NCBI GenBank assembly: GCA_002402635.1
Contig: DHGE01000126.1
Location: 893 to 64,892, forward strand
DNA length: 64,000 bases
Source of the DNA: Deferribacterales bacterium UBA4806
GTDB taxonomy: Bacteria > Chrysiogenota > Deferribacteres > Deferribacterales > UBA228
Direction: 5' to 3'
Shown here: piece after piece, positions 4,859-37,620 of the stretch
Layout: every line of letters begins with the position of its first letter
Position numbering within the stretch: position 1 is the stretch's first letter
Translations under genes and position numbers: made by a program
The notes under the pieces: model-generated
Database searches by the model: none
What the model saw: only the letters and a program-made list of their open reading frames with translations
What the model was told of the DNA's origin: nothing

Positions 4859-5322
4859 AGCAAAAAATCCCCTAATATGTCAATAGTTTTACCAAATGTA
4901 ATATCATCTTCAATCAATATGTCGCTGAAATGTCTTAAAAAAGGGTGTTTCCTTAACTCCTCACTACTAAATTTATTGACAACTGTAAATATATATTTAT
5001 TATGCTGGTGAGCAAACATAATCTCCATAGATGACCCAATGAAAGGGTAGGAGTATTTGTCCAAAAGGTCTTCATTAAAATAAGCAAAAAGAATATCACT
5101 ATTATAAATCAATTTTAAATCCATATTAACAATACTAGAACTAAAACTACCTCCATTATCCTTTACACAAGTTAACACATTATAATCCACGGGATACACA
5201 AATTCTATCATTCCGTCCAATATGCTATTATTAATAGCACTTACAAATTTACTTCTGTAATCTCTATCCTTGTCTTTCTCTTTGTGAAAAATCCTTCCAG
5301 CTAAATATAATTTCTTTTTCAT
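4855..5322 (-). CDS. nucleoside 2-deoxyribosyltransferase/Rcl-like protein
   Basis: KKLYLAGRIF at the N-terminus. DILFAYFNE...IGSSMEIMFAHQHNKYIF resembles the NDT fold with a catalytic-type Glu. Confidence 0.4.
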   Translation of the reverse strand: MKKKLYLAGRIFHKEKDKDRDYRSKFVSAINNSILDGMIEFVYPVDYNVLTCVKDNGGSFSSSIVNMDLKLIYNSDILFAYFNEDLLDKYSYPFIGSSMEIMFAHQHNKYIFTVVNKFSSEELRKHPFLRHFSDILIEDDITFGKTIDILGDFLL

Positions 5323-5703: not shown

Positions 5704-5993
5704 TGTTCCCTCTTATTACCATAATTTTCATTATCATTTATCACCACCTCGTTATTTATTTTCAAATAATCAAACAAATTATCAGCCAATACATTTTCAT
5801 CTTTCATCAAAAAACAAATCTCAGGGCTTACCTTTTCTAATATTACATTTTCTCCTTTCAATACACACCCTTGCTCTAAACTATAAATCATTTCTAAAAA
5901 ACAACTCACCACTCTTCTGGTTTTGGGATTACTTTCTACTCCTATTGAACTCAAAAAATCATTTACTGTAATTATTTTTTTATTAATTCCCAA
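5700..5993 (-). CDS. hypothetical protein
   Basis: ORF in the tiling. Confidence 0.5.
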   Translation of the reverse strand: MGINKKIITVNDFLSSIGVESNPKTRRVVSCFLEMIYSLEQGCVLKGENVILEKVSPEICFLMKDENVLADNLFDYLKINNEVVINDNENYGNKREQ

Positions 5994-11035: not shown

Positions 11036-11893
11036 TCACTTTATTAAATTTTTATCCTGATACAGTTTTTCTGCTTTCTTTCTTTCCCAAGTTTTCTTTA
11101 CTGCTTCCGTTCTCTTTTTTATATGCTCTTCAGTTTGTTTTTTACCCTTTATCCAAGTGAGTTTACCTTTCTTTGCTTCTGATTTTTTTCGTCTTGTTTC
11201 TTCACTATCTTTTTTACCTTGTAATGATTTAGATATTTTTTTCTTTTCCTCTTCTGTACGAGGTATTCCTTTATTCCAAGGAGATATACCATACATAGGG
11301 TTCTTTTCACCAATTTTTGATACTGATTTTTTTAATCTTATCTCTTCGTTATCTTTTCTACCTTTCATTGCTTCCAACTTTTTTCGTCTTGTTTCTTCAC
11401 TATCTTTTTTACCTTTATTACCTTCTCTTATTTTTTGTATTGTTTCTTCAGAAGGATGCTTCCCATATAAAGGATGGTTTTTACCACTAAGACTTTCTGA
11501 TACTTTTCTTCTATGTTCTTCAGTACGTATTTTTCCTTTATTACTTGCTCCTATTTTTTTCTTACGTTCTTCTGAACATTTTACTCCTAATATATTTCCT
11601 GCTGTAGGTGATATATTATATAAATTTTTTATCCCATAAGTATTTATAGCTCTTTGCTCATAAAATAACAAATTTTCTTTGTCACAATATAATAAAGGCT
11701 TAAATTCAAAATTTTCTTCCCCATATTTATTCCAAACATTTTGTAAATAAATACAATGGTGTTTATTTTTCATTAAATCTCTTTTATGATTCTTAAATCT
11801 ACCCTTCAAATTTATAGCACTTCCTACATATAATTTCCCATTAACTTTATTTTCTATTATATAAATCCCTGTATTAAACTTAGATTTTTTCAT
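11036..11893 (-). CDS. GIY-YIG homing endonuclease with NUMOD3 repeats (paralog of 1986..2798)
   Basis: GIYIIENKVNGKLYVGSA. The N-terminal roughly 110 aa align colinearly with 1986..2798. Repeats of the type GKNHPLYGKHPSEETIQKI. Confidence 0.85.
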   Translation of the reverse strand: MKKSKFNTGIYIIENKVNGKLYVGSAINLKGRFKNHKRDLMKNKHHCIYLQNVWNKYGEENFEFKPLLYCDKENLLFYEQRAINTYGIKNLYNISPTAGNILGVKCSEERKKKIGASNKGKIRTEEHRRKVSESLSGKNHPLYGKHPSEETIQKIREGNKGKKDSEETRRKKLEAMKGRKDNEEIRLKKSVSKIGEKNPMYGISPWNKGIPRTEEEKKKISKSLQGKKDSEETRRKKSEAKKGKLTWIKGKKQTEEHIKKRTEAVKKTWERKKAEKLYQDKNLIK

Positions 11894-15648: not shown

Positions 15649-15687
15649 CTATATATATTATAAGTAAAATTGCCATTTCATTTAGGG
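15649..15687 (-). promoter_or_regulatory. phage-specific promoter-like motif (upstream of the clamp loader)
   Basis: Minus strand: CCCTAAATGAAAT-N11-TTATAATATATATAG. Confidence 0.45.
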
Positions 15688-17073
15688 TAAATTTAAAAAT
15701 TTTCTTTCTCCCCAAGATTTATCCACCTCTGCTTTCTCTACTTCCACTGTTAAAGGTATGTTTATCCATTTCCAATTTTCCCTAATATCCTCTGTAGCTA
15801 TTCTAACCATTAACTTTATAGCATTATCACACTCTTCAGGTAAAATATCAGCCGTTATTTCATCGTGAATTTGGGATACTAATCTACTATCCATTTTATG
15901 CTCCCTAAATACTCTATCAATTTCTACAAATGCCCAAAGTAAACAATGAAAAGCAGTCCCCTGAAAGGGATAATTAGTTATATCTTTTTTACTCATCAAT
16001 CCATAACAGCGAAAACCTGTTTTCATCTCAATATATCCTTTTTTCTGATACTCATACCATACCTTATCTTTCCATCTACTATATTGTTTATATCTCACAT
16101 TCCAAAACTGGTCTTCTACTTTTCTAACGTGCTCCAAAAACTTATCAAATTTTTTAACATTACCTGATTTATCAAGCGTAATTAGTTCCTTATCCTTCAA
16201 ATGAACCAAAGCTGGAGTATCATCTTTGAGATAAGCCTGTCTTGCCCATTTAAGAAGATTTAATACACAATTTCCATAGTAATCTCCATAAAATTGTGGG
16301 AATACAAAACCATTTTTTGCTCCCTGTCTTAATACAGCTTCTCCAGAATGTCTTTTATCCAAATCATCCAACATATATAACTCTATAGCCATATCTTTGT
16401 GCATATCTCCGTGTAGAACATCATAACATAATTTTTCATCTTCTACATAACAAACTGCCATTTTTACTTCAATAGCCGAGTAATCCATAGAAACAAATTG
16501 GTGTCCTGGTCTCGGAAACAAAGCCTCTCTACATATTTTTGTAGCTTCCTTATCTCTCTTGGGTATATTTTGAAAATTTGGACTATCGCTAGAAGAGCGA
16601 AAAGTCTTAGTTAAATGTAAATTAAAAAATGGGTGAATATAGCCATTTACCTGCTCTCTCATAAACGCATCCAAATAAGTATCTCTAATCTTACGAAACT
16701 TTCTCATCTCCAATAACATATCCAATTCTGGTATATCTAACTCTGATAAAGCTTCTTCATCTGTAGCCGGTTGCCCTGATTCTGTAAATCTTACAGGTTT
16801 TAATTTTAGTATTGAATATAAAAATCTGCTCAACTGAGGATTTGAATTAAGGTTAGGTCTTTTCCCACCAATTGACCTGCTCCATTTTTTCCCAAAATTA
16901 CTTTCATAAATTTTCTGTTCTAATTCTGCTATTCTAATTGTCAACTCTTCTTTTTTTCTCTTACAATATTCCATATCCACTCTCATTCCTGTATATTCTG
17001 CTCTTTGTAAGGCTAAAGCTCCTTTATGAAAAAGTTCATAGGCTTCCTTTGTACTAGGTACACTTTTAACCAT
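15682..17073 (-). CDS. polA: family A DNA polymerase, polymerase (palm/fingers/thumb) subunit only
   Basis: SSSDSPNFQNIPKR, RQGAKNGFVFPQFYG (motif B) and QIHDEI (motif C). ATG at 17073 has GAGG 8 nt upstream; the track start at 17079 is TTG. Confidence 0.85.
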   Translation of the reverse strand: MVKSVPSTKEAYELFHKGALALQRAEYTGMRVDMEYCKRKKEELTIRIAELEQKIYESNFGKKWSRSIGGKRPNLNSNPQLSRFLYSILKLKPVRFTESGQPATDEEALSELDIPELDMLLEMRKFRKIRDTYLDAFMREQVNGYIHPFFNLHLTKTFRSSSDSPNFQNIPKRDKEATKICREALFPRPGHQFVSMDYSAIEVKMAVCYVEDEKLCYDVLHGDMHKDMAIELYMLDDLDKRHSGEAVLRQGAKNGFVFPQFYGDYYGNCVLNLLKWARQAYLKDDTPALVHLKDKELITLDKSGNVKKFDKFLEHVRKVEDQFWNVRYKQYSRWKDKVWYEYQKKGYIEMKTGFRCYGLMSKKDITNYPFQGTAFHCLLWAFVEIDRVFREHKMDSRLVSQIHDEITADILPEECDNAIKLMVRIATEDIRENWKWINIPLTVEVEKAEVDKSWGERKFLNLP

Positions 17074-17088
17074 TAGCAAAACCTCATT

Positions 17089-18330
17089 TTAATTTTCTTC
17101 ATCATATTCTATCTCCTTCATTTGTTTAATAGCCAGCCTATACGTAAATATTGTATCTAATCCATTATAAAGCAATAATTGTCTTTTACCTTCGCTACTT
17201 TCTAACAACCTATCAATCCTATTAAGTGAATTTCCATTTTTACTATCCACTGGTTGAAGATAAGAAGATATTTCACTATCATAATCCACTATCCCAAAGG
17301 TCACATACGTTAAAAATTTTAATCCAGTTATACCTTGTCTATTGTCTAAAATATGGGAGGCTAGCATAGTATCCCATTTCCAATTTCTTACTTCATAGCC
17401 TAACTTGTTTTGTATCCAAGTATGTTCAAATTTCATATTATGTGCTATTTTAGGTATATTGGGATTTCTTAAAACTCTTTTAATCTCATACAATACCTTC
17501 TCATCCTCTGGTAATAAAAATGAAAAGGCAGATTTTTCCGAATTACAAAAAGCAAATGAAATTATTTTACTCTCCTTACTATACCCTTTTAAACTATTTG
17601 TCTCTATATCTACCGCTATCAATCCTTTTATCTCTCTCAACAATTCAATTAATCTATCAGATGAACTCACTATTTCCACCTGAGATTTTTCATCTTCATA
17701 TTTCGGAAAAGGTTTATTATGCGTTGATAAGGCTCTTTCTAAATCCTGTTTCCAAATGATTTGAACTTCTCTTTCATCTCTCTCAACTACAAAGGAAGGA
17801 TGCCAAACAGGACACAGCCACGCATTAAAATCTCTATCAGGTATTACCCAACCTCTCCATTTTGTAATACCTCCCAAATCTTTTTTCCATCTATGTCCTA
17901 AAAGACAATTTATAGCAGTATTACCAAAAGCCATAATCACTTTGGGTTTTCTTTCCATTATAACTTTTATGATACTTGCTCTACAACTATTTATTTCCTC
18001 TGAGGTAGGTTCCCTATCATTTCCTTCTTTATCTACTACTCTACAACGTACTGCATTAACATTCAAACAATCCTCGAAAAGGTCAATTCCTAACCTTTCA
18101 TATTCTCTTTCTAATCTTCGTCCAACAACACCTTGCCAAGGTTTCCCCTTTCTATCCTCTTCTTGCGTGGGACTCATACCTATATTTAAAATCCCCTTTT
18201 TAAAATTACCAAAAGGCGGCATTTTAGGATTAATTGAATAACGATACAATCCACAAGAAACACAAGAATAAAATTTCCCATCAGGCCGAGAAACACTTTG
18301 TGTTTCTTTTAAATCAAAAAATCCTCTCAT
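17089..18330 (-). CDS. family-4 UDG-like domain fused to a 3'-5' exonuclease domain (N-terminal polymerase subunit)
   Basis: CVSCGLY, GMSPTQEEDRKGKPWQGVVGRRL, NAVRCR and WHPSFV (UDG4 pattern). Then IAVDIETNSL and later exonuclease motifs. Confidence 0.8.
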   Translation of the reverse strand: MRGFFDLKETQSVSRPDGKFYSCVSCGLYRYSINPKMPPFGNFKKGILNIGMSPTQEEDRKGKPWQGVVGRRLEREYERLGIDLFEDCLNVNAVRCRVVDKEGNDREPTSEEINSCRASIIKVIMERKPKVIMAFGNTAINCLLGHRWKKDLGGITKWRGWVIPDRDFNAWLCPVWHPSFVVERDEREVQIIWKQDLERALSTHNKPFPKYEDEKSQVEIVSSSDRLIELLREIKGLIAVDIETNSLKGYSKESKIISFAFCNSEKSAFSFLLPEDEKVLYEIKRVLRNPNIPKIAHNMKFEHTWIQNKLGYEVRNWKWDTMLASHILDNRQGITGLKFLTYVTFGIVDYDSEISSYLQPVDSKNGNSLNRIDRLLESSEGKRQLLLYNGLDTIFTYRLAIKQMKEIEYDEEN

Positions 18331-18355: not shown

Positions 18356-19372
18356 TTATACATTTTCCTTTACAAATAAAGATATCACGTGTTTCCAATT
18401 TTCTCCTTCAAATAATATCTTATTTTCACCAATAACACAAGATAATTCTTTTTCACACATTTCTTTCAAGAAATCAGGATTAACAGCAAAAGAAAATTCC
18501 TCACCTTCATAACGGACATTAGCTTGTGCTTTAAACCAACTATTATTACTTTTAGCATATATTACCATAGTATTATTACTTACCGTAATATCCACTTGAG
18601 CTTCCAAAGAAAGCTCTCCTTTAACAAAAATTCCAGCTCTATCTAATATCTCCCCTAAATTTTTCGGTAATTTAAGGGTTTTTCCTGAAACCTCAAAAAG
18701 ATGTTCTGTATCCGGATATTTGTCTGTAAAAATTCTGCTTGAAAATATTGTTCCTTCCGCAGTATGAAAATGTATCCAGCCCTCTCCTCCTGCTATTTCT
18801 ATTATGTTTAAAGTAATTAAATTTTTAGCTGAAGATACTGGTAAAAGAAAAGTATTAACGGGTAGCTTTTCTATTTGATATCTTGCAAGTCTATAACCAT
18901 CAGAAGCTTCAATTAATCCATCATTTCTAACATTTACACAAGTTAATATCGGACGACTCATATCTGTAGAACAAGAAGGAATACAAAACTTAATAGCTTC
19001 TATTAATTTTTCAGGAGTTTTTTTCCAACTATCAGATATTTTCAAAGAGTCCAACGGAAGGTATATCTCTTGAGTCAAAGCAAATCCTGCTTTTTCTTTA
19101 CCAGAACTAATACAAACTTCCGACTTATCTACCATTATCTCAATTTCATCTTTTTTACTTTTCTTTAAAAACTGATACAATTCTTGAGCTGGGATAGTTC
19201 CTGTAATTTCTAATCCATTTACAGGGTGCGAAATACTAATCTCATCATTATATGTAACTACCTTACCATCAATAAAAGCAAATGAAGTTGATTGCTCAAT
19301 CATTTCCTTATTAGCCAATCCCGGCTTTACAATTTCTAAAACATTAAGTAATTCTTGTCTATTAATTTTCAC
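18356..19372 (-). CDS. beta sliding clamp (DnaN-like)
   Basis: MKINRQELLNVLEIVKPGL..., about 340 aa with a three-domain repeat feel, located between the polymerase and the clamp loader. GTG start. Confidence 0.55.
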   Translation of the reverse strand: MKINRQELLNVLEIVKPGLANKEMIEQSTSFAFIDGKVVTYNDEISISHPVNGLEITGTIPAQELYQFLKKSKKDEIEIMVDKSEVCISSGKEKAGFALTQEIYLPLDSLKISDSWKKTPEKLIEAIKFCIPSCSTDMSRPILTCVNVRNDGLIEASDGYRLARYQIEKLPVNTFLLPVSSAKNLITLNIIEIAGGEGWIHFHTAEGTIFSSRIFTDKYPDTEHLFEVSGKTLKLPKNLGEILDRAGIFVKGELSLEAQVDITVSNNTMVIYAKSNNSWFKAQANVRYEGEEFSFAVNPDFLKEMCEKELSCVIGENKILFEGENWKHVISLFVKENV

Positions 19373-19387
19373 TTATTACCTCCTTTA

Positions 19388-20380
19388 TTATAATCCTAAA
19401 TTATTTCTTATTTTAAAAACTATATTACTTTTTTTAACATTTAACCATTTTTCTAATTCCAAAAAATATCTTACATTTATAAGAGCCCTCATTTGAAATT
19501 GCTGTAAATCATCATAAGAATATCCATCTTGCTCTAAAAGTTTTAAAAAATTAGAAGTTAAATAACCAGTACCTTTTTTAATTTTCCTATCCGAAACAGT
19601 ACATACAAGAGCAGATTTTGAAAAATTAGAATTTTTAAAACCTCCTTGAGGATAATATATAGCACCCATACCTGCAGAAATCTTCCAACTTGCAGAATCA
19701 CAACTTGTCCAAGGTAAATTTAGAAGTATTTTCTTATTTGTAACTGCAAATCCATGTGTATCAACATTAACATTATTACGATATAAATATTCAAAAACTG
19801 ATAACATCCACTGATTTCTTTCATTTGTCGAAACATCATTTGCAGGTGAAATCCCAATATAATCGATATACTCAAGCATTTTATCTAACCACTTCCAACT
19901 TTCTCCTTGGTGAAATACATGTATTGGTTTTATACCTTGTTTTATCATTTCTTTCATATTTTGAAATCCAGCATTCGCCGCGCGTTCAATTAATTCAATA
20001 TTTTCAAATTTCCTATTCCTAGTTAAAGATTGTGTTTGTCCCACAATCCCGGGAATTACATCAAGATTTACAATATAAACCTTTTGATTAGAAAATTTTG
20101 AAACTTCATTAATTATTTGATGTGCATATTTAATATAATTATCCAAATTAATTAACTTTCCTTTATTCCATGCAGTAAAAGCCCCTGAATCAACTATAAT
20201 ATTCCCTTCCATATCTAATGGAATATTATTTATCCACCCTTTAAATTGGTCTGGGTAAATATAGGAAACAAGCACATTTTTAACCCCCGCATTTATAAGA
20301 TTAAACATCCTCTCATTACTACAACCCCCCCAAACAGCCGCAAAATAAAGTTTAATTGGCTTCATACTCAACCTCAACAT
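19388..20380 (-). CDS. dpdA: DpdA-type DNA 7-deazaguanine transglycosylase (TGT superfamily)
   Basis: IVDSGAFTAWNKG motif, TIM-barrel-like length, adjacent to the que genes. AGGAGG lies 11 nt before the Met at 20380. The longest ORF extends to 20404. Confidence 0.8.
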   Translation of the reverse strand: MLRLSMKPIKLYFAAVWGGCSNERMFNLINAGVKNVLVSYIYPDQFKGWINNIPLDMEGNIIVDSGAFTAWNKGKLINLDNYIKYAHQIINEVSKFSNQKVYIVNLDVIPGIVGQTQSLTRNRKFENIELIERAANAGFQNMKEMIKQGIKPIHVFHQGESWKWLDKMLEYIDYIGISPANDVSTNERNQWMLSVFEYLYRNNVNVDTHGFAVTNKKILLNLPWTSCDSASWKISAGMGAIYYPQGGFKNSNFSKSALVCTVSDRKIKKGTGYLTSNFLKLLEQDGYSYDDLQQFQMRALINVRYFLELEKWLNVKKSNIVFKIRNNLGL

Positions 20381-20810
20381 TAATAAAAGTTCCTCCTCGC
20401 GCATTAAAATTACTAATCACTTTCATCCAACGAGGTGAACAAACAGAAACAAGGTCCTCTAAAATCCTATTTGTAAGTGTTTCCATAAAACAACCATATT
20501 GACGATATGATAAAAGATAAAGTTTTAAACTTTTAGTTTCAATACATTTCTCATTTGGTATATATCTAATAGTAATAGTTGCAAAATCTGGCTGACTAGT
20601 CTTGGGACATAACGAAGTAAACTCACCAAACTTAAATTCAGTAATATAATTTCGATTGGGATATTGATTCGGAAAAACCTCAAGTAAATCTGGACAAGGT
20701 GAATCATATACATACTTTGTATTATGTGCGCCAAGTTGTATAAGCCCTTCAACTTCATCTTGTTTTGTATCAACTTTTGTACTTATTTCCTTTTGTTTAA
20801 AATCTTCCAT
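20352..20810 (-). CDS. queF: NADPH-dependent 7-cyano-7-deazaguanine (preQ0) reductase, unimodular type
   Basis: EFTSLCPKTSQPDFATITIRYIP and ETKSLKLYLLSYR (QueF motif). Confidence 0.9.
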   Translation of the reverse strand: MEDFKQKEISTKVDTKQDEVEGLIQLGAHNTKYVYDSPCPDLLEVFPNQYPNRNYITEFKFGEFTSLCPKTSQPDFATITIRYIPNEKCIETKSLKLYLLSYRQYGCFMETLTNRILEDLVSVCSPRWMKVISNFNARGGTFINVEVEYEAN

Positions 20811-20891
20811 ATATTGCCTCCTTATAATTCTTAGTAACTACTATAAAATAATAAGATACAATTTTATCCAAACTATTCATCTGTACTATAA

Positions 20892-21455
20892 TCAAATTCT
20901 ATTCCTAAGTCGTGCCATAAATTCATCCTTACAACCATCTTTATTTTCAAGAAAAATTCCACGTGCTTCAATCACTTCAAAAGGGCAATCCCATTTTTTA
21001 AGACCTCGCATTTCCTTACAAAGATGTCTTCCTGTCATTAAAAGGATACACCCAAGAGGATGGACAGCTTCCTCAATATAATCTAAAATATTTTTAACTA
21101 ATCTTTCTTGTATTTGAAGGCGCGCGGAAAAATAATCAATCGTTCTACCTATTTTACTTGCTCCCAAATATCCATATTTTGAATCAGGAATATAACCAAA
21201 ATAATAATGCCCAAAAAATGGAACCATATGATGCTCACATATACTAAAAAAATATCCTTTATCCGTAATTAACCCTTGAGGAGTTTCATCATTAAAAATA
21301 GTAATCACAGGAGGATTATCATGGTACCCACGAAATAACTCACAATACATTTTAGCAATTCTCAACGGTGTATCTTTTAACCCTTGACGTTCTGGGTCTT
21401 CACCTATCTCTAAAAGAATTTGTTTAAAAAGATTTGAAATTTTATTCATATTCAT
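20892..21455 (-). CDS. folE: GTP cyclohydrolase I
   Basis: DTPLRIAKMY and SICEHHMVPFFG. Confidence 0.9.
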   Translation of the reverse strand: MNMNKISNLFKQILLEIGEDPERQGLKDTPLRIAKMYCELFRGYHDNPPVITIFNDETPQGLITDKGYFFSICEHHMVPFFGHYYFGYIPDSKYGYLGASKIGRTIDYFSARLQIQERLVKNILDYIEEAVHPLGCILLMTGRHLCKEMRGLKKWDCPFEVIEARGIFLENKDGCKDEFMARLRNRI

Positions 21456-21458
21456 CTT

Positions 21459-22142
21459 CTATTGTCCTCCTTCATATTCAATAGGGTCTTTAATACCTAA
21501 TTCACAAAACGCTTCCAATCTTTCTTGACAACTTCCACATTTCCCACAACTAACAGGTTGACTCTTATAACATGTTCTTGTAAGATAATATGGAACCTGA
21601 GGATTACATTCCAATCCTTTTTTAAGAATAGTAATTTTATTATCATTAATTAATGGTGCCAGAACTTCTACTTTACAATTAGAAGATAAAAAAATAGCAG
21701 TATCCAATGCCTTTATAAATTCTTTTCGACAATCCGGGTAAATATAATGGTCTCCTTGATGGACACCAAGTGCAATAGCATTTGCATCAATTGATTCAGC
21801 CAATCCTGCCATAATGCCCGCAAAGATAAAATTACGTTCGGGAACAACCGTTACAGACATCGATTTATCATTATAATAACCCTCAGGAATATCACCACAA
21901 TGAAGAAGTAAATTAGATTTAAACACTTTCATAATATTGGAAATATCCATCATGTACTTTGTAATAGAAAATCCTTGTTTAAAATAAAATTCAAATACAG
22001 ATTGAGCTGCAATATTTTCCCATTTATTATGTTTAGAACCATAATAAAATATACAACAATGTACATCATAACCTTGCTCAAGTAAAATTCCAAGTAAAGT
22101 TGCTGAGTCCATCCCACCTGACAATCCCATAACTACTTTCAT
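21459..22142 (-). CDS. queC: 7-cyano-7-deazaguanine synthase
   Basis: VVMGLSGGMDSATLL (PP-loop) and C-terminal Cys cluster CYKSQPVSCGKCGSC. Confidence 0.9.
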   Translation of the reverse strand: MKVVMGLSGGMDSATLLGILLEQGYDVHCCIFYYGSKHNKWENIAAQSVFEFYFKQGFSITKYMMDISNIMKVFKSNLLLHCGDIPEGYYNDKSMSVTVVPERNFIFAGIMAGLAESIDANAIALGVHQGDHYIYPDCRKEFIKALDTAIFLSSNCKVEVLAPLINDNKITILKKGLECNPQVPYYLTRTCYKSQPVSCGKCGSCQERLEAFCELGIKDPIEYEGGQ

Positions 22143-22163
22143 AAAATCCTCCTATACGTTCTA

Positions 22164-22204
22164 CTTATATTTATATTATAAGTAAATATACAATTTCATT
22201 TAGG
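22164..22204 (-). promoter_or_regulatory. phage-specific promoter-like motif (upstream of queC)
   Basis: Minus strand: GCCTAAATGAAAT-N11-TTATAATATAAATATAAG. Overlaps the queE stop codon. Confidence 0.4.
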
Positions 22205-22880
22205 CTAATCCTAAAATTTTATGTAACTGTAATGAAATAATTACTCTATCTCTAAATTTATCAGGGAAAAAGAAAAGAACCCCTTTATTTTTTGTATCTG
22301 CATTCATAGGACTGATGATAAACATTCCCTTATACCCCATACTATCTAATTCTATCATATCCGTAACCACAAAATCTCTATCTTTATGATAATAAGGAGA
22401 AACAGTAGAAGCAACTACATATTTAAAAATAACTGGAGTTTTATTCCAATTATAAAAATCTATTCCTAACTCTCCAATAGGACGTGATTGATTTTCAGAG
22501 GAAGGTCCTTTTCTATCTATAACCCAACCTCCACGACCTTGTATCTCTGATATAACAGGAATTGGTAAAGAACCATTAGTTTCTATTTGGACATAATGTC
22601 CTGCCAATAATAAAATTCTAATAAAATCAATACAATTCTCTGCCAAGAGAGGTTCTCCACCTGTAATCAATACTTGTTTGGTTTTAATCTTATTAAATAC
22701 ATCATCCGCAGAATATTCTATTCCGCCTTTAGAGGATTGCGCTTTAACAGTGTCGCAGTAGATACAACGTAAATTACATTTTTGAAATCGAAGGAATATA
22801 CAAATACTTCCCTGAGGAAAGAAACCGGATTCTCCACTAATAGAAACAAAAGGTTCTTCATGTAGATATAATTTCTTCAT
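22200..22880 (-). CDS. queE: 7-carboxy-7-deazaguanine synthase (radical SAM)
   Basis: FQKCNLRCIYCDT (CxxxCxxC), ITGGEPL. Confidence 0.85.
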   Translation of the reverse strand: MKKLYLHEEPFVSISGESGFFPQGSICIFLRFQKCNLRCIYCDTVKAQSSKGGIEYSADDVFNKIKTKQVLITGGEPLLAENCIDFIRILLLAGHYVQIETNGSLPIPVISEIQGRGGWVIDRKGPSSENQSRPIGELGIDFYNWNKTPVIFKYVVASTVSPYYHKDRDFVVTDMIELDSMGYKGMFIISPMNADTKNKGVLFFFPDKFRDRVIISLQLHKILGLA

Positions 22881-23305
22881 ACCTTTTCTCCTTTATTACT
22901 TTCTTGCCTCAAAAAAAATTCTACATCTTTTCTTTCTAATATAGCTACACTATCGGGCGATTCCCAAATACTAATACTTTCTACGCCTTCAAGTTTTGCT
23001 TTGAATACCAACTGCTTCCATATCCAAAGTAACAGATTCTCCGCTGTCGGATTTTCTACATAATTATTAAGAACATTATGGTCTAATAATTCTATTATGT
23101 GTTTCGACATTACTTTCTTCAATTCTGAAAAATCAAAAACCATTCCACTTTCTAAATCAATGCGTTTTTTGATTGATACCTTTACTTTCCATTCGTGTCC
23201 ATGCCAATTATAACATTTACCATTATAAAAAGGTAATCGATGAGCAGAAGCAAAAGACATCGTCTTCGAAACTGTAACAAATGGTAATTCTTTTTTTTCT
23301 TCCAT
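22877..23305 (-). CDS. queD: 6-carboxy-5,6,7,8-tetrahydropterin synthase
   Basis: FASAHRLP...C...HGHEWKV (PTPS-family His/Cys pattern). Confidence 0.85.
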   Translation of the reverse strand: MEEKKELPFVTVSKTMSFASAHRLPFYNGKCYNWHGHEWKVKVSIKKRIDLESGMVFDFSELKKVMSKHIIELLDHNVLNNYVENPTAENLLLWIWKQLVFKAKLEGVESISIWESPDSVAILERKDVEFFLRQESNKGEKV

Positions 23306-23321: not shown

Positions 23322-23360
23322 CTATATATATTATAAGCAAAAACATTATTTCATTTAGGG
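23322..23360 (-). promoter_or_regulatory. phage-specific promoter-like motif (upstream of queD)
   Basis: Minus strand: CCCTAAATGAAAT-N11-TTATAATATATATAG. Confidence 0.45.
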
Positions 23361-23377: not shown

Positions 23378-24913
23378 TCACCAATAACTCCCTAATATAG
23401 CTCTACCCATCTGTAACCGTTGAAGAACTGTAACAGGACGAGATATATCAAAATCAGAATCACGGATTACAATAGGGTTAATTCTCATAAGCCCTATTCT
23501 TTTTTCCTCCGGTGTTTGATTTAATCCAAAAATTGCTGTAGCGTGAGCCATTTTTCTTTTATCCTCACTAAAATCCTCCATAGTTAACAATTCTTTTTCA
23601 TACCCAGCCGCTTTTATCTGTGTTACAGTGATAACTAAACAATTATATTCCTGGGATAAATTTCTTAACCTCTGCCAAATTCTATTTTGCTGGTGTCTAA
23701 AATCTAATCGAATAATATCCGAATCAGGAGCCAATATATCCACATAATCTATAATAATAACATCAGGTTCAAACCCATCTTCTTTTTTCCAAGCAGACAA
23801 ATAAGATTTAATATCCCTAACTGACAATGTTTCATTAGCGTGAGTACTCATACGGAAGGAAGCATTATACTTTTTCCCAAATTCCCTTAAATATCTATAT
23901 GCCTCTTCCCAAATTAATGGAGATACTTCTTTCTTGTAAACCAACCAAGGACTTCCTTTCAATTCTCTACAGTTATGACAAGGTTGATACTCCGGATAAT
24001 CCCTAGCTAACTTAACTAAATTATCGTATGTAATTTCCCTTTTATTTTTAAGGATTGCTCCATGTTCACACTCTCTTTCTTTTTTATTACATTTATCCAT
24101 TTGATTATTTAAACAATCCACGGTAGGCACCCACATAGGTTGGCAATACCTTTCCTGGTCTGACCTACCTGCTAAATAAATTGCAAAACGTCTTAATTGT
24201 TGAAGTTCCGTCATATCCCCAGCTTGAAAAAAGGCTACCCTATTCCCGCATCTAACTGCTCTAAAAGCAATATCAATTAAGGTGAAAGTTTTTCCAATTT
24301 TTTCTCTACCCATCATTGCTACAAACCCACCTCTAATCATTTCTGAATTCCAAAACTGCCCTATCGCTTTCGGAAAAAGGATTAAAGGTTGTTCTCTTTC
24401 TGTAAATGCTTTCTTAATTTTTTCCTTAACCTGTCTAGAAAATGGGTCTATAGTGGTAGCATCTTCTTTTATCAATGGAGCATATTTTGTAAGTATCTCA
24501 GCAGTAGTCTCCAAATTTCCTTTTCTTAATTCAAATTCCGCATCTTCCAATATGAGTTTAGTATGCCTTTCCTCAAAATACTTTTTAGCTAAATCCACCT
24601 TATATTTATCCGGTTCTGTTTTAGCATATTCCTCAGATAAGCTACCTAAAATCTCTTCAATCCATTCACCCTTTTCCTTAGACAATCCTGCCTTTAGTTT
24701 TTCAATATAAATATTCTCAATATCCTTCCCCGGAGCTTTATTGTATTCATCGAAATATTCTACACACCAGCTAGTTAACATCTTTGCAGTATCTGATTCC
24801 ATCCACTTGGGACTCCATAACTTACGTATTTGGTGAAGATATTCGGTAGAAGTTATCATCCCAATAACTATCTGTCTTTCAATAAATTCGCTGGTATTTT
24901 CTATCTCACTCAT
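23378..24913 (-). CDS. dnaB: DnaB-family replicative helicase with a Cys-rich insertion
   Basis: GGFVAMMGREKIGKTFTLIDIA (Walker A), VIIIDYVDIL (Walker B), ITVTQ. The insertion reads C..C...C.H....C.NC. Confidence 0.8.
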   Translation of the reverse strand: MSEIENTSEFIERQIVIGMITSTEYLHQIRKLWSPKWMESDTAKMLTSWCVEYFDEYNKAPGKDIENIYIEKLKAGLSKEKGEWIEEILGSLSEEYAKTEPDKYKVDLAKKYFEERHTKLILEDAEFELRKGNLETTAEILTKYAPLIKEDATTIDPFSRQVKEKIKKAFTEREQPLILFPKAIGQFWNSEMIRGGFVAMMGREKIGKTFTLIDIAFRAVRCGNRVAFFQAGDMTELQQLRRFAIYLAGRSDQERYCQPMWVPTVDCLNNQMDKCNKKERECEHGAILKNKREITYDNLVKLARDYPEYQPCHNCRELKGSPWLVYKKEVSPLIWEEAYRYLREFGKKYNASFRMSTHANETLSVRDIKSYLSAWKKEDGFEPDVIIIDYVDILAPDSDIIRLDFRHQQNRIWQRLRNLSQEYNCLVITVTQIKAAGYEKELLTMEDFSEDKRKMAHATAIFGLNQTPEEKRIGLMRINPIVIRDSDFDISRPVTVLQRLQMGRAILGSYW

Positions 24914-24924
24914 TTTTTATCTCC

Positions 24925-24964
24925 CTATAATATATTATAACCAAAATCTCATTTTCATTTAAGA
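24925..24964 (-). promoter_or_regulatory. phage-specific promoter-like motif (upstream of dnaB)
   Basis: Minus strand: TCTTAAATGAAAA-N11-TTATAATATATTATAG. Confidence 0.4.
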
Positions 24965-27366: not shown

Positions 27367-28650
27367 CTACACCCCTATTATTATTTCTGGATATTCTTTA
27401 CTTCTAACTGTCAGGTTAGGTTTCATGAAAAGTGGAATATTGAATTCATTACATTGTATAATCAGAGATTTAACCCATTTCCATTCTGGTTGACCTTCTG
27501 ACATCCCAGTTGACCTAGACCTTCCTCCTACAATTAGCCACTCGATAGGTGGATTTTTTGGAAGTACTATATGTTCCATTAAAGGTTCACATGAAATAAA
27601 TCTGGTAGGATGATTTATTTGTTCGAAAATTTCTAAGGCAAGATTCATTCTTTTTTGAGTATCTGCCGTAGCCCCTAACCAGCAAGTTTCTGGCCACCTG
27701 AATTCTAAATAACGTTTAGGATTTTTAGTAAGAATAATGCAATTCCATTGAGGAGATTTTTTCATACTTTCTATCACCTGTTCAATCCACTCTTTCTTTA
27801 CCCAATCACCAAGCATATCTCCCATAGACACTGTAAAAACATTGTGAATACCAGATTCATTTTTCCTGTTTTCTGGTATTTTTGTGTTTTCTGGAGCTGA
27901 TAATCTTTTAGGATAGAAATGAGGTTCAAATCCATGAGGATAAAAACGATTAGCTATATCTCGAGCGTAACAGTAGGGGCATCCGTGTTTACATCCTGTA
28001 ATGGGATTCCATGTCCACTTTGCCCAGTCGATATTTTCATTGGTAGTATTAAAAGTAGGTTTTTCAACTTCTTTTCTTTCCTTTTTTTCTTTTCTAAGTT
28101 CTCCTGCCGCTTTATCAATGGAGATTTCTCCTACGATAACTTTGTTTTTTATTTCTTCATTATCTGAATCCAATATTGTTCTGGCATTACTAACGGTGGA
28201 GGAACCTACTCCTAATATTTCAGCAGTTTTTTTATGGGAAGGTTCTTTTTGTTCTTGAATCAAATTTTTGGTACCAAAAATTTGATTTTTAAATTCTTTA
28301 CTTTTACGGTCACCACCTCTTTTCTGTCTTTTATCCAAGGCTTCAATACATCTTAATATTTCTGCCTGGGTGAGATTTCTACGATTTCTTTGATTATGAA
28401 TAGCATACTCTAAGGCATGTCTTTCGGACTTAAATTCGTATTGTACCACCGGTATATCTTTTATCCCTGCTTGTTTTGCCGCTTCAAGTCTGGTATGCCC
28501 ATCAATTACAATGTTTCCCCATAAAACAATTGGTAATGCTTCATCATACCCTTGTTCTTCCATATTTTCTTTTATAGCTTGTAAAATAGCATCATTTATA
28601 TCAAATATGGAATTAAAAGGTTCCTGTGTTTTGATTTCATCAATTTTCAT
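27367..28650 (-). CDS. ParB/Srx-like N-terminal domain + HTH + DUF5131 (phage Gp37/Gp68, three-Cys CxxxCxxC) fusion protein
   Basis: NIVIDGHTRLEAAKQAG (ParB motif), TAEILGVGSSTVSNA (HTH), WTWNPITGCKHGCPYCYA, FTVSMGDM, ILTKNP, ISCEPL, WLIVGG, PLFMK (DUF5131 pattern). Confidence 0.75.
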   Translation of the reverse strand: MKIDEIKTQEPFNSIFDINDAILQAIKENMEEQGYDEALPIVLWGNIVIDGHTRLEAAKQAGIKDIPVVQYEFKSERHALEYAIHNQRNRRNLTQAEILRCIEALDKRQKRGGDRKSKEFKNQIFGTKNLIQEQKEPSHKKTAEILGVGSSTVSNARTILDSDNEEIKNKVIVGEISIDKAAGELRKEKKERKEVEKPTFNTTNENIDWAKWTWNPITGCKHGCPYCYARDIANRFYPHGFEPHFYPKRLSAPENTKIPENRKNESGIHNVFTVSMGDMLGDWVKKEWIEQVIESMKKSPQWNCIILTKNPKRYLEFRWPETCWLGATADTQKRMNLALEIFEQINHPTRFISCEPLMEHIVLPKNPPIEWLIVGGRSRSTGMSEGQPEWKWVKSLIIQCNEFNIPLFMKPNLTVRSKEYPEIIIGV

Positions 28651-29452
28651 TTTTTTCCTCCTTTTCTTTTTCTGTATAATTATATTTATATAATAATTCC
28701 TGTCCTTCCTTTGTATCTATACTGATAAATCTGAATGTTTTTATATCATACTGTTCCGTATTAGTTCCAAAAAGTAATAACCATTGGTATTTTGAATGTA
28801 TTTGTAAAAGTGAGTTATCTCTAATCCATATATATTTTTTATTTAATTGGGATATAATGGAAAAAAGTGTTACTTCCTTATACTTTTTAAAGCATTCTCT
28901 TCCGCCTTTTTCATAAGCAGTGCGATTTCTTTTTATCTGTGTAGCGTTAATGTTTAGAATAATATCCATTCTAGGATTGTTTTGAATAAAAGAAATAAGG
29001 GCCTTGTAGTCTTCTAAAATGAATCCATAAGGGTCGAAATATAATAGCCCGTATCTATATTTTTTACCTCCTAAATCATATAGAACTTCTTGCATATTTC
29101 TTCTACGAAAATTTATCTCTATTTTTGTATTTTTTACCATTGGTAAAAATCTGTGATAATAATTTCTTTTTAATTCTTTCATTTCTTTTTTATCCCTTTC
29201 TATTAGGTATAATTTCATTGGAATTTTTGTGTAAGGTAAAAGACTTTTTAAAAATATTTGAGGAGAGGTAAGATAATCAGGGTTCATATCCTTGGCAGTG
29301 CAATCTATAAAATATAATTCATTTTCAAACCATTTATTATATTTATACTTGTTATAAATAAATATTAATTTTCTGATTTGGGTATTAATTAAATACCGTA
29401 AATCCTTTTGTTTAAAAGGTGTTATTTCTGACATTTTTTCTAATGCACTCAT
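28640..29452 (-). CDS. tcmP: TcmP-like protein (three-Cys-motif partner protein), methyltransferase-fold suspected
   Basis: About 270 aa, immediately downstream of and overlapping the DUF5131 gene. YFIDCTAKD and LLYFDPYGF resemble the remembered TcmP pattern. The call is mainly by context. Confidence 0.45.
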   Translation of the reverse strand: MSALEKMSEITPFKQKDLRYLINTQIRKLIFIYNKYKYNKWFENELYFIDCTAKDMNPDYLTSPQIFLKSLLPYTKIPMKLYLIERDKKEMKELKRNYYHRFLPMVKNTKIEINFRRRNMQEVLYDLGGKKYRYGLLYFDPYGFILEDYKALISFIQNNPRMDIILNINATQIKRNRTAYEKGGRECFKKYKEVTLFSIISQLNKKYIWIRDNSLLQIHSKYQWLLLFGTNTEQYDIKTFRFISIDTKEGQELLYKYNYTEKEKEEKNEN

Positions 29453-30502: not shown

Positions 30503-30541
30503 CTATATATATTATAGTTAAAAATCACATTTCATTTAGGG
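30503..30541 (-). promoter_or_regulatory. phage-specific promoter-like motif (upstream of the primase)
   Basis: Minus strand: CCCTAAATGAAAT-N11-CTATAATATATATAG. Overlaps the sigma-like gene stop codon. Confidence 0.45.
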
Positions 30542-31004
30542 CATTTTTTATATTGGTGAAAGCTTTCCATATTCTACTCCAAGACCAACCTTGTTTTCTT
30601 AATTTTTTATATATTTCACCTTTACAAACTTTGGGCAAAAATCCTACATATTCCAGAGGTGATTCCAAAATTATTTTACAAACCTCTCTTGCTTCAATTC
30701 CCATATCGTTAAGAAGTTCTGAAATTGGGGGACACCAGGGTACAGGAATTTCCATTGTTTCTCCAGTTTCTGTAATAAGAGATAAATGATTTTTTTCCTG
30801 TCTTTCTTTTACAATATAGGTTATCAACGCATTTTTAACATAGGTATAGATTAAGGTAGTTTTCTTATTACCTTTTGTTATGTCAAAATCCCGTAAAGCT
30901 TTGTAATATGCTACCAGAGCCTCTGATAGCATATCCTCATACTCAAGGTCTGGATTTTTATTCCAGAATTTCCACACTAAATTGTTGATTAAATTTGTTT
31001 CCAT
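30525..31004 (-). CDS. small sigma-70-family-like factor
   Basis: YEDMLSEALVAYYKALRDFDITKGNKKTTLIYTYVKNALITYI (region-2-like). C-terminal KKLRKQGWSWSRIWKAF is a region-4-like HTH. Confidence 0.5.
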   Translation of the reverse strand: METNLINNLVWKFWNKNPDLEYEDMLSEALVAYYKALRDFDITKGNKKTTLIYTYVKNALITYIVKERQEKNHLSLITETGETMEIPVPWCPPISELLNDMGIEAREVCKIILESPLEYVGFLPKVCKGEIYKKLRKQGWSWSRIWKAFTNIKNALNEM

Positions 31005-35791: not shown

Positions 35792-36505
35792 ATGATGAAA
35801 AAAGAAATAAATGAAACTTCAATTAGCAGATTATTAGAAAGGAATGAAAAATTTGATTGTTGCTTTATTACAGCTTTCAGACTAACAGATAACTGTGATA
35901 TGGGCAGACCTTATACTAAAAGAGAAAATATGGCAAGAAATTACTCTTTGGAATTAAAATTAGCACGTAGTTGGTATAGTGTTACCAGAGTCATTGGTAC
36001 TTATGAAGATAAAGGAAAAAAACAAAAAGAAATATCCTTTTTTGTAGTAGATGATAGAGTAGATGAAGATGACTCTTTGAAAAAGAGACAAGAATATACA
36101 AAAGAATTTTTAGAGGATATGTTATATTTAGGAGAATTATATGAACAGGATAGCATTTTATTCCTTCCCAAAGGTTCTATTTTAGGCAAAGCTAAACCTA
36201 TATTATATGGAACTAATGATTGTCCAAGAGCTATAGGCAAAGGAAATAAAGAATATTTTAATGGGGGTTCAAGAATTAATAAAACATCTAAACTATATAC
36301 TACTATTGTTAATGGTAAGCCTATGTATTTTGAAATGGGAGTAAATGAAGTTTATGGGGCTCAAACAGGGCTTGGAAATTTGGGGTTAGCTATATTAGCA
36401 AATAAACCTTGGAAAGATTTACTTAAATACATAGATGAAAAATATGAAAGAAATTATTTTAAAGACCCATATATAGAATATTGTAAAAATAGGAGGTTGA
36501 AATGA
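35792..36505 (+). CDS. hypothetical protein
   Basis: ORF in the tiling, AGGAAG RBS. Confidence 0.55.
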   Translation: MMKKEINETSISRLLERNEKFDCCFITAFRLTDNCDMGRPYTKRENMARNYSLELKLARSWYSVTRVIGTYEDKGKKQKEISFFVVDDRVDEDDSLKKRQEYTKEFLEDMLYLGELYEQDSILFLPKGSILGKAKPILYGTNDCPRAIGKGNKEYFNGGSRINKTSKLYTTIVNGKPMYFEMGVNEVYGAQTGLGNLGLAILANKPWKDLLKYIDEKYERNYFKDPYIEYCKNRRLK

Positions 36506-36814: not shown

Positions 36815-37102
36815 ATGAAAATAGCTGGATTAGAAGTACCTCAAGTAGAAAACTTAGATATGTTAAATATATATGATAAAATACTTCTAGCTTTGATTGT
36901 AAATAATAATAATAATGGTATTAATGTGGAGAATTTAAGAAAAATACTTAGCAAAAATTCGAGATATAATAGAATACTTGAGAATAATATTTTACAATCT
37001 TGTTTAAATAAGTTAATAGAAATGAATATTATAAAATCAATTTTTAATTTAGATACTAATGAAGAAATTTTTACAATTAATAATATGGTGGAGGTAGGAT
37101 AA
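36815..37102 (+). CDS. hypothetical protein (possible winged-helix)
   Basis: The in-frame ATG at 36815 has an AAAGGGG RBS and removes the overlap produced by the track start at 36782. Confidence 0.45.
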   Translation: MKIAGLEVPQVENLDMLNIYDKILLALIVNNNNNGINVENLRKILSKNSRYNRILENNILQSCLNKLIEMNIIKSIFNLDTNEEIFTINNMVEVG

Positions 37103-37620
37103 TGTCGTTAAGGAAAAGACCTAAAATATTAACAGGAAAGACTATAGAAATGCGTGTAGGGTGCGGTAAATTACACGTTATTGTTAATGTAGATGAAAAT
37201 AACCTACCTTTTGAAGTATTTGCTAGTATTGGTAAAGGAGGGGGTTGTGCGGCAAGTCAGTGTGAAGCTATAGGAAGGTTAATCTCATTGAATTTGAGAA
37301 CTGGAGGGGATGTAAAAAGAATAATAAAACAGTTGAAAGGAATATCCTGTCACAATAAAATGGGGCTTGGGGAAAATCAGCTCTCTAGTTGTGCCGATGC
37401 TATTGGAAAGGCTATTGAGGAAGTATTGGGATTAAAACCTGTGATTAAATTGCCTAAAAAAGAGAAGGTAATTGTACCAGAAGAGGTTAAATCTGAGGCT
37501 GTGGTAGAACCGGAACCTACCAAGGTTCATAATGGAGCCTGCCCTGAATGCGGGGGAACTTTAGTTTATCAAGAAGGTTGTGATGTATGTAATAGTTGCG
37601 GTTATAGTCATTGTTCTTAA
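37102..37620 (+). CDS. standalone TSCPD-domain protein with C-terminal zinc ribbon
   Basis: GCGKLHVIVN...FASIGKGGGCAASQCEAIGRLISL...LSSCADAIGKA (TSCPD-like). C-terminal CPECGG...CDVCNSCG. Confidence 0.6.
   Translation: MSLRKRPKILTGKTIEMRVGCGKLHVIVNVDENNLPFEVFASIGKGGGCAASQCEAIGRLISLNLRTGGDVKRIIKQLKGISCHNKMGLGENQLSSCADAIGKAIEEVLGLKPVIKLPKKEKVIVPEEVKSEAVVEPEPTKVHNGACPECGGTLVYQEGCDVCNSCGYSHCS

Follow-up and report, generated by a model that had tools for sequence, protein, structure and literature searches.

The subject of this study is a six-gene cassette at positions 19388 to 23305 of a 64,000-nucleotide stretch of metagenomic DNA (the window), which is predicted to direct synthesis of the 7-deazaguanine base preQ1 and its insertion into the DNA of an uncultured phage. 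The cassette consists of six adjoining open reading frames (ORFs), all on the minus strand and all intact, with a transcription order of queD, queE, queC, folE, queF and dpdA. The first gene, queD (22877 to 23305), codes for a 6-carboxytetrahydropterin synthase of 142 residues and is followed by queE (22200 to 22880; radical-SAM 7-carboxy-7-deazaguanine synthase, 226 residues), queC (21459 to 22142; 7-cyano-7-deazaguanine, or preQ0, synthase, 227 residues), folE (20892 to 21455; GTP cyclohydrolase I, 187 residues), queF (20352 to 20810; unimodular NADPH-dependent preQ0 reductase, 152 residues) and dpdA (19388 to 20365; DpdA1-type DNA guanine/7-deazaguanine transglycosylase, 325 residues). The original prediction had described six contiguous genes with diagnostic motifs wedged between a sliding clamp and a DnaB helicase. 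All six ORFs were found at these coordinates, every motif quoted for them is present in the translations, and family matches confirm both neighbours. A DnaN-like sliding clamp gene (18356 to 19372, minus strand; phrog_947 2.9e-34, TIGR00663 1.5e-12) lies 15 nucleotides downstream of dpdA, and a DnaB-like replicative helicase gene (23378 to 24913, minus strand; phrog_19 9.2e-30, PF03796 6.7e-7) lies upstream of queD. The DNA inspected comprised positions 1-79,508 of the 115,459-bp metagenomic contig k141_1502243 (ENA ERZ27315071; hereafter the record), in which window position 1 corresponds to record position 5724, and an identical cassette is present in a second sample.

Each of the six genes is preceded by a Shine-Dalgarno sequence; the queD ATG, for instance, follows an AGGAGG ribosome-binding site. 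The queE start overlaps the queD stop codon (ATGA), and the gap between folE and queF is 81 bp. The dpdA ORF, when called mechanically, begins at 20404; we prefer the GAGG-preceded ATG at 20365, which is also the choice of the ENA gene caller and which places the start of dpdA 14 nucleotides inside the end of queF.

Curated-family matches agree with the identities originally proposed for FolE, QueD, QueC and QueF, and QueE is assigned by best matches and context. QueD matches PF01242 (1.5e-30), exceeds the cutoff of the TIGR03367 equivalog (94.3 bits versus 89.25) and carries the signature C-x3-HGH as CYNWHGH. QueC matches PF06508 (1.6e-50) and TIGR00364 (165 bits versus a cutoff of 150); its sequence includes the SGGMDSATLL PP-loop and, at the C terminus, a cluster of Cys residues. 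For FolE, the match to PF01227 exceeds the Pfam cutoff (153 bits, 5.3e-45), that to NCBIfam NF006826 falls just below its own (160 bits versus 162), and the CEHH zinc motif is present within SICEHHMVPF. QueE contains the CX3CX2C motif of radical-SAM enzymes (CNLRCIYC, extended as CNLRCIYCDT), matches the QueE-like family phrog_2076 at 6e-26, and has E. coli QueE (6NHL, 1e-4) as its best PDB match. QueF scores 162 bits against the TIGR03139 preQ1 synthase model (cutoff 87), contains the motifs EFTSLCPKTSQPDF and ETKSLKLYL, and shows about 50% identity to the B. subtilis enzyme (4F8B, E 1.7e-39) and 50.7% identity to QueF of Streptococcus phage Dp-1. The thioimide-forming Cys68, Asp75, the NADPH motif E91-T-K-S-L-K-L-Y and Glu110 are all conserved; the second position of the NADPH motif is Thr, where the consensus E(S/L)K(S/A)hK(L/Y)(Y/F/W) has Ser or Leu. 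Because the nucleophilic Cys and the NADPH motif are present, QueF is, on its sequence, a true unimodular nitrile reductase and not the archaeosine-forming QueF-L. Phage QueFs of either type can stand in for the deleted queF of E. coli, which indicates that they act on the free base, and no alignment with QueF-L is seen for any of them (PMC10516641). The predicted FolE-QueD-QueE-QueC-QueF pathway is complete and intact.

The sixth protein has no Pfam or NCBIfam match at E<=0.01, PF01702 and TIGR00430/tgt included; it matches phrog_887 at 5.7e-50 and contains the motif VDSGAFTAW. Tblastn searches retrieved 184 phage records whose annotations name DpdA or a protein resembling tRNA-guanine transglycosylase (TGT), the best being Streptococcus phages MS1 and Dp-1 at 31-34% identity. 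E values were 1e-20 to 1e-25 to the DpdAs of Dp-1/MS1 and of 9g-like phages (Nonagvirus, CAjan-like Seuratvirus), and 5e-20 to those of Nonagvirus JenP1 and SE1. A 49-sequence family profile aligned end-to-end by hhalign with the 9g-like JenP1 DpdA (probability 99.9%, E 3e-31) and showed no similarity to the phiST DpdA3, CGPG_00065 (probability 0.1%, E 0.42). Window His204 aligns with His196 of JenP1 (9g numbering), a residue that is conserved in 9g-type DpdA1 and absent from DpdA2 (PMC6884629). On this evidence we file the window transglycosylase as a predicted DpdA1 of the 9g/Dp-1 type, DpdA2 being known here from its description and not from a direct alignment.

The AlphaFold2 model of DpdA (predicted local distance difference test score, pLDDT, 92.6) has an eight-stranded alpha/beta fold resembling a TIM barrel, and among PDB structures Foldseek matches it best to tRNA-guanine transglycosylases (probability 1.00, E 2.5e-6, template-modelling score about 0.5, covering the barrel only). 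Residues D59, D102, H152, H204 and D223 are invariant. Of these, D59, D102, H152 and D223 are so in alignments of 53 and 15 sequences that include Dp-1 and 9g-like proteins; they lie at the C-terminal ends of model strands 3, 4, 5 and 8 and correspond, by motif and strand position rather than by superposition, to Asp95, Asp130, His181 and Asp256 of the bacterial enzyme bDpdA. In bDpdA these residues have been shown or proposed to act as general acid/base (Asp95), in base recognition (Asp130 and His181) and as nucleophile (Asp256), and both the Asp95Ala substitution and substitution of the nucleophilic Asp abolish guanine exchange (PMC10164549). The window protein has three Cys residues (Cys15, Cys222 and Cys255), and both the CxCxxC...H zinc site and the C-terminal region of TGTs are absent. 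With the JenP1 alignment, the TGT-like fold and the retained catalytic residues, the proposal that this TGT-superfamily member is a DpdA, the signature protein of phage 7-deazaguanine modification systems, stands.

We interpret the cassette as a self-contained pathway of the kind found in phages Dp-1 and phiSM that would make preQ1 and insert it into phage DNA, a reading to which we give a probability of about three in four. As predicted from family membership, FolE would convert GTP to dihydroneopterin triphosphate, QueD would form 6-carboxytetrahydropterin, the radical-SAM enzyme QueE would yield 7-carboxy-7-deazaguanine, QueC would produce preQ0, and QueF would use NADPH to reduce the free preQ0 base to preQ1. 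DpdA would then exchange guanine for preQ1 in double-stranded phage DNA after replication by a TGT-type double displacement, with Asp223 as the putative nucleophile, Asp59 as the putative general acid/base, and Asp102 and His152 reading the edge of the base. The aminomethyl group would be read by an S-P-A-N-D loop at residues 173-177, and dPreQ1 at some G positions would blunt host restriction. The expected product is 2'-deoxy-preQ1 (dPreQ1), which would be introduced after replication and probably replaces only part of the G.

Published measurements agree with this expectation, as does the original argument from the literature that DpdA inserts the base into DNA. In phage Dp-1, with its identical set of six enzymes, dPreQ1 makes up about 1.7% of G (PMC6884629), and phiSM carries dPreQ1 at about 1.1% of G together with mdPreQ1 formed via DpdM (PMC6884629, PMC10516641). 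Flavobacterium phage immuto 2-6A contains fdPreQ1 formed via DpdN and uses a DpdA3 (PMC6884629, PMC10516641). In addition, the QueF-associated DpdA2 of phage VH7D prefers preQ1 (PMC10516641). Plain dPreQ1 is predicted because QueF is genuine and because DpdM, DpdN, ArcS and a Gat-QueC fusion were not found. Specifically, no DpdM was detected in record positions 1-79,508 of 115,459 by Pfam, by tblastn or with a 14-sequence DpdM hidden Markov model (HMM), and Pfam scans of the same positions gave neither a PF00551 formyltransferase match, which would point to DpdN, nor a CxxCxxCC match, DpdM being a methyltransferase of the YkgJ/CxxCxxCC type. As for dG+ (archaeosine), QueC has 227 residues and no Gat domain, and window scans returned no ArcS-like match. 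The earlier statement that QueF predicts dPreQ1 rather than dPreQ0 or archaeosine is therefore supported as a prediction, with no diverting enzyme in the 79.5 kb. The description of the DNA as hypermodified remains a prediction, and the extent of modification is probably partial.

A nearby lineage differs in this respect. A relative whose DpdA is 59% identical to that of the window carries, between folE and queF, a DpdM homologue that is 35% identical to phiSM DpdM (E 6e-35), so that its absence from the window phage is a real difference between relatives. This homologue lies at L009:6557-7204 (the same contig as L066), and others occur at loci L059, L068, L113 and L119, the DpdAs concerned being 49-59% identical to that of the window. 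Such DpdM-bearing close relatives, unlike the window phage, are predicted to make mdPreQ1. A further protein encoded in the window (4855-5322, minus strand) resembles nucleoside 2-deoxyribosyltransferases, with a PF05014 match of 2e-6 that is just under the cutoff, and an annotated nucleoside 2-deoxyribosyltransferase lies four genes from dpdA in Edwardsiella phage vB_EpM_ZHS. A putative role for the 4855-5322 protein in handling deazaguanine nucleosides or nucleotides is conceivable.

Additional information on the base comes from the loop that would contact the 7-substituent. In TGTs and bDpdA this substituent is read by a Gly-rich loop that follows strand 6 (G206-G207-M208-V209-P210-L211 in bDpdA; PMC10164549). 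The corresponding beta6-alpha6 loop of the window DpdA is G-I-S-P-A-N-D (residues 171-177). An S-P-x-N-D loop is found in six of seven cultured phages that encode QueF and in none of eight that lack it: Dp-1, phiSM and Flasso have SPAND, and Dinoroseobacter phage R5C, Pseudanabaena phage Pan1 and Arthrobacter phage Mufasa8 have SPRND. The QueF-less phages JenP1, KS_A3, PaMx25, pVco-14, ART, HD01, ZHS and Rosebush have a G-G-[LM]-V-[GP] loop. The exception is Mycobacterium phage Funsized, which has a QueF-like gene and a GGMVG loop. The QueF-like gene of Funsized (L138:1296-2565) keeps the Cys and NADPH motifs and adjoins the dpdA that encodes this GG-type loop; the related phage Rosebush is without QueF and has measured dPreQ0. 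Staphylococcus phage 'SA 1306 Kay' (an UNVERIFIED_ORG record) was left out of the comparison, as it has QueF but no DpdA within 12 kb. The measured bases fit the loops, with dPreQ1 in Dp-1 and phiSM and dPreQ0 or dG+ in Rosebush and in phages of the CAjan and 9g types.

The same association is seen in metagenomic loci, which were retrieved with two patterns, one of which contained SPAND. They were clustered at 70% identity, and one locus with 2.5 kb or more of sequence to either side was counted for each cluster. Among these, S-P-x-N-D loops occur with QueF at 56 loci and without it at 12, and GG-type loops occur with QueF at none and without it at seven (Fisher p = 2.5e-5). The window DpdA is about equally similar to both groups (26-32% versus 25-28% identity), and thus the loop tracks QueF better than it tracks general relatedness. 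We read this link as support for preQ1 as the base handled by the window DpdA. A limited literature search found no earlier description of S-P-x-N-D as a marker of QueF, and a prior report elsewhere is possible. We also offer the tentative proposal, to which we give somewhat less than even odds, that the window DpdA belongs to a preQ1-dedicated branch of DpdA1 in which an ancestral G-G-[LM]-V-G loop was replaced by S-P-x-N-D, with the Asn and Asp binding the protonated aminomethyl group; as a corollary, the cassette would be a recently imported mobile module. If true, the loop would predict dPreQ1 versus dPreQ0 from the genome alone and would provide a handle for re-engineering DpdA specificity.

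The composition of the window bears on the origin of the cassette. Three palindromes are the most depleted of the 256 tetramers in the 64 kb: GATC (6 versus 135 expected), CATG (16 versus 100) and TGCA (61 versus 132). Within the cassette there is no depletion of CATG (8 versus 8.2 expected) or TGCA (11 versus 13.1), as compared with 8 versus 92 and 50 versus 120, respectively, outside it. Eight of the 16 CATG sites therefore fall at 19753-23200, in 6.1% of the window (binomial p = 1.6e-6, calculated post hoc), and five more lie at 27424-28416 in a DUF5131 gene. GATC is absent from the cassette, and all six sites (38137, 38413, 38644, 38813, 39553 and 40502) are in or beside a gene for an Eco57I/PglX-like adenine methyltransferase. 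The simplest reading of the cassette's escape from CATG and TGCA depletion is that it was imported recently, perhaps in answer to host restriction, by a genome in which selection had long removed these sites. The regions that hold these GATC and CATG sites look like recently acquired islands. Relatives show no CATG/TGCA contrast between cassette and flanks.

The methyltransferase (37822-39825, plus strand; PF07669 3e-42, BREX PglX-like 7.6e-40) looks like an orphan; it is of the Eco57I/PglX-like N6-adenine DNA type, has a specificity domain resembling that of TaqI and would be a second, independent DNA modification; a TSCPD-domain protein (37102-37620) is its neighbour on the N-terminal side. 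The DUF5131 gene (27367-28650, minus strand; PF07505 2.7e-38, phrog_2045 3.9e-49) lies in the replication module and encodes a ParB-like N-terminal domain fused to DUF5131, resembling the radical-SAM 'mobile pair protein A'. It is followed by a gene (28640-29452, minus strand) whose product weakly matches the three-Cys-motif partner protein TcmP (TIGR04474 6.8e-8, below cutoff). The product of 35792-36505 on the plus strand weakly resembles S-adenosylmethionine lyases (PF23780 2.5e-5, below cutoff) and may be an anti-restriction SAMase.

How the base is finished, and in what order, allows for readings other than plain dPreQ1 made before insertion. The final base could be mdPreQ1, fdPreQ1 or an undescribed derivative formed by an enzyme encoded outside the cassette, or a mixture with substantial dPreQ0. 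There are precedents in phiSM, with its mdPreQ1 via DpdM, and in immuto 2-6A, which has the same five biosynthetic genes and makes fdPreQ1 via DpdN; the relative with the 59%-identical DpdA has a DpdM homologue as well, and about 36 kb of the contig lies outside the scan. Nevertheless, in relatives DpdM sits within the cassette, the folE-queF gap here is only 81 bp, and the scanned record positions hold no match to DpdM by tblastn or HMM, to PF00551 or to CxxCxxCC, so that we regard a derivative base as unlikely. A reversed order of events, in which DpdA inserts preQ0 and QueF then reduces the DNA-bound dPreQ0 much as archaeal QueF-L acts on tRNA-bound preQ0, has in its favor that every biochemically characterised DpdA1 inserts preQ0, and the possibility was raised in 2019 (PMC6884629). 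It is rendered quite improbable by a QueF that is of the standard unimodular type, shares 50% identity with its B. subtilis counterpart and is equipped with the NADPH motif, by the action of phage QueFs on the free base indicated by the E. coli complementation described above, by their lack of alignment with QueF-L, and by the difference in the 7-substituent loop between QueF-linked DpdAs and preQ0-inserting ones, which is expected if DpdA meets preQ1.

The substrate and the extent of modification can be questioned in a similar manner. Historical annotation, in which both PHROG and GenBank name such proteins 'queuine tRNA-ribosyltransferase', and the natural use of preQ1 by bacterial TGT would accord with an auxiliary metabolic module that raises queuosine in host or phage tRNA, the TGT-like protein acting on tRNA and not on DNA. 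This is barely plausible for a protein of 325 residues that has no PF01702 or NCBIfam tgt match at E<=0.01, only three Cys and thus no zinc site, and no TGT C-terminal region. Moreover, the window contains no tRNA genes, QueA, QueG and QueH were not found in window scans, and dpdA belongs to a replication module in which the clamp and polymerase genes come directly after it, an arrangement shared by phages with proven DNA modification; in CAjan, deletion of dpdA abolishes the DNA modification (PMC6884629). Complete replacement of guanine, as in phages with DpdA3, is likewise very improbable. The full pathway is encoded behind two strong-looking phage promoters (described below), and dPreQ1 reaches 30% in HVTV-1 (PMC6884629). 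Against this, the family profile matches DpdA1 and is unlike the phiST DpdA3 (hhalign probability 0.1%), measured DpdA1 phages have 0.1 to 30% of G modified (PMC6884629, PMC10516641), and GATC and CATG are avoided here to an extreme degree; so are they in Dp-1, which is modified at only 1.7% of G and is free of GATC over the 9 kb examined.

A number of observations weigh against insertion of preQ1 by a complete pathway, or limit how firmly it can be held. QueE is below all curated QueE cutoffs; its top NCBIfam matches are four QueE models (TIGR03963 at 103 bits versus 260), and as the protein is divergent its assignment rests on best matches and context. QueF has Met at the position of B. subtilis His96. 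The phiSM QueF, which has Gln at that position, complements an E. coli queF deletion (PMC10516641), so that Met is probably tolerated and we do not count it against function. The only QueF-associated DpdA1 tried heterologously, that of phiSM, was inactive in E. coli (PMC10516641), so that preQ1 insertion by a DpdA1 stands as a prediction. The scan for tailoring enzymes covers 79,508 of 115,459 bp, the remaining 36 kb (79,509-115,459) being outside it. The loop-QueF statistics ignore phylogeny, and the retrieval patterns favored SPAND sequences. Finally, the avoidance of GATC and CATG implies a genome that relies on site avoidance, for which modification is not, or until recently was not, a complete shield; a modification that is no blanket shield fits partial replacement as in Dp-1.

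Phage 7-deazaguanine systems have been described in two studies (Hutinet 2019, Cui 2023; PMC6884629, PMC10516641), and comparison with them indicates that the window cassette is a further DpdA1 plus QueF system for dPreQ1 of the Dp-1/phiSM kind. This assignment, drawn from gene content, is well supported; the kind is already published and the gene order is common in uncultured phages. Dp-1 and MS1 share with the window the same six enzymes, the closest cultured QueF (50.7%) and DpdA (31-34%), the SPAND loop and a clamp gene after dpdA. In contrast, the Dp-1 order is queF-queC-queD-queE-folE-queT-dpdA, including a QueT transporter gene that is absent here, and its cluster is at the genome end and not between helicase and clamp genes; the phages are otherwise unrelated and have no nucleotide match. 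Cellulophaga phage phiSM, in which dPreQ1 has been measured, likewise has a DpdA1 with SPAND, QueF, a full preQ0 pathway and a nearby clamp gene, but it also has DpdM and a ParB-like gene beside dpdA, whereas no DpdM was found in the 79.5 kb of the window phage. The Queuovirinae (9g, JenP1, CAjan, PaMx25/iggy) share the DpdA1 subfamily and the dpdA-clamp-polymerase synteny and differ in that they are without QueF, insert preQ0 (which 9g then amidates to dG+) and have a G-G-[LM]-V-G loop. The bacterial Dpd system (bDpdA/DpdB/DpdC, Salmonella Montevideo) also employs a TGT-like TIM barrel on DNA with equivalent Asp, Asp, His and Asp residues. However, bDpdA needs the ParB-like ATPase DpdB, keeps the zinc site, has a large Ins8 insertion and is specific for preQ0, and DpdC converts its product to dADG; the window system shares none of these features. 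The DpdA3 systems (Cellulophaga phiST, Campylobacter CP220 and Flavobacterium immuto 2-6A, the last with FolE through QueF) are also phage 7-deazaguanine systems, but they replace G completely, and the window DpdA profile is without similarity to phiST DpdA3.

To describe prevalence, we used 56 loci from IMG/VR, each with a gene for a relative of the window DpdA and no less than 6 kb of sequence upstream; an alignment-based scan of IMG/VR gave matches where a single-protein scan gave none. QueF is present at 47 of the 56 loci and is immediately upstream of dpdA at 43, a clamp gene follows dpdA at 36, all five biosynthetic genes are present at 27 (tblastn E<=1e-5), and DpdM occurs at seven. One sub-lineage retains only QueF and DpdA and must use host preQ0. 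The order of dpdA followed by the clamp gene is also found in Dp-1, Flasso, JenP1, PaMx25 and pVco-14. A conserved ORF beside queC or queF at 19 of the 56 loci ('X314/X310') was considered as a new pathway enzyme and rejected: it is low-complexity, acidic and lysine-rich with a short C-terminal KNPKY, it has no Pfam, NCBIfam or PHROG match, and it is absent from the window.

The phage itself is distant from those in culture. Among 50,697 phage records, megablast found no nucleotide relative and blastn found only 100-130 nucleotides of queF, and the polymerase (PolA) is at most 28% identical to that of any cultured phage. This family A DNA polymerase is split over two genes (15682-17079 and 17089-18330, both minus strand), one encoding a uracil-DNA-glycosylase-like domain fused to a 3'-5' exonuclease and the other the polymerase domain, and the same split is seen in relatives. 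As to the host, the closest matches in genome collections are short contigs in CPR (candidate phyla radiation) and Izemoplasma bins of metagenome-assembled genomes and one Gracilimonas scaffold, none of which is close enough to assign one.

These results add to the phages predicted to carry dPreQ1 DNA an uncultured lineage with a large genome (over 115 kb) of low GC content, and they describe the tightly coupled QueF-DpdA pair beside clamp and polymerase genes as a widespread module of metagenomic phages. DNA of this kind can be refractory to restriction enzymes, to Cas9 and to some of the chemistries used in preparing and sequencing libraries, so that flagging it aids cloning, sequencing and engineering. 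The S-P-x-N-D loop and a cassette exempt from site avoidance would sharpen prediction of bases from genomes; neither changes the basic picture of 2019-2023.

The cassette is also predicted to be expressed with the replication genes. Four exact copies of the 12-mer CCTAAATGAAAT are present in the window, and a fifth copy is a variant that has the core TAAATGAAA in common with them. The promoter architecture consists of CCTAAATGAAAT, 12 nucleotides, TATAAT and then ATATATAG, and all five copies have the 12-nucleotide spacer followed by (C/T)TATAATATATATAG, are on the minus strand, are intergenic and lie upstream of replication-module genes. When one mismatch at most is permitted there are seven matches versus 1.6 expected, a number reached in none of 100 shuffles. 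Two phage-specific promoter copies had been placed inside the cluster, upstream of queD and queC. The motif is real and both are exact copies upstream of these genes, with that of queC at 22167..22204 (same 12-nucleotide spacing, with the queE stop codon within the upstream element); that of queD, at 23322..23359, is just outside 19388-23305. The others precede the clamp-loader gene (about 15649-15686), the helicase gene (the variant, about 24923-24963) and the primase gene (about 30503-30540). A generic scan for sigma-70 promoters and terminators was uninformative (38 sites versus 39 expected), and as the motif has no canonical -35 element such a sigma-70 scan misses it. From this arrangement, two phage-specific promoters would drive the cassette along with the replication genes, the putative units being queD-queE and queC-folE-queF-dpdA, the latter running into dnaN. 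Neither the cassette nor the window contains a preQ1 riboswitch or any other Rfam family. Adjoining one motif copy is a gene for a small protein with sigma-70 region 2 (30525-31004, minus strand; PF04542 9e-7; TIGR02937 1e-6, below cutoff), and it is a guess that this candidate phage sigma factor serves promoters of this type.

Additional genes of the window are apart from these subjects. A methyl-accepting chemotaxis protein with dCache and HAMP domains (40634-42370, minus strand; MCPsignal 5e-29) and a PilB/GspE-type secretion ATPase (42619-44319, minus strand; T2SSE 7e-124) are unusual phage cargo. Two GIY-YIG/NUMOD3 homing-endonuclease genes are present in the window (1986-2798 and 11036-11893, minus strand) and two HNH/RRXRR endonuclease genes in the contig flanks (L127:5195-6409 and L128:11363-12571), and these four endonuclease genes indicate that the genome is rich in selfish elements.

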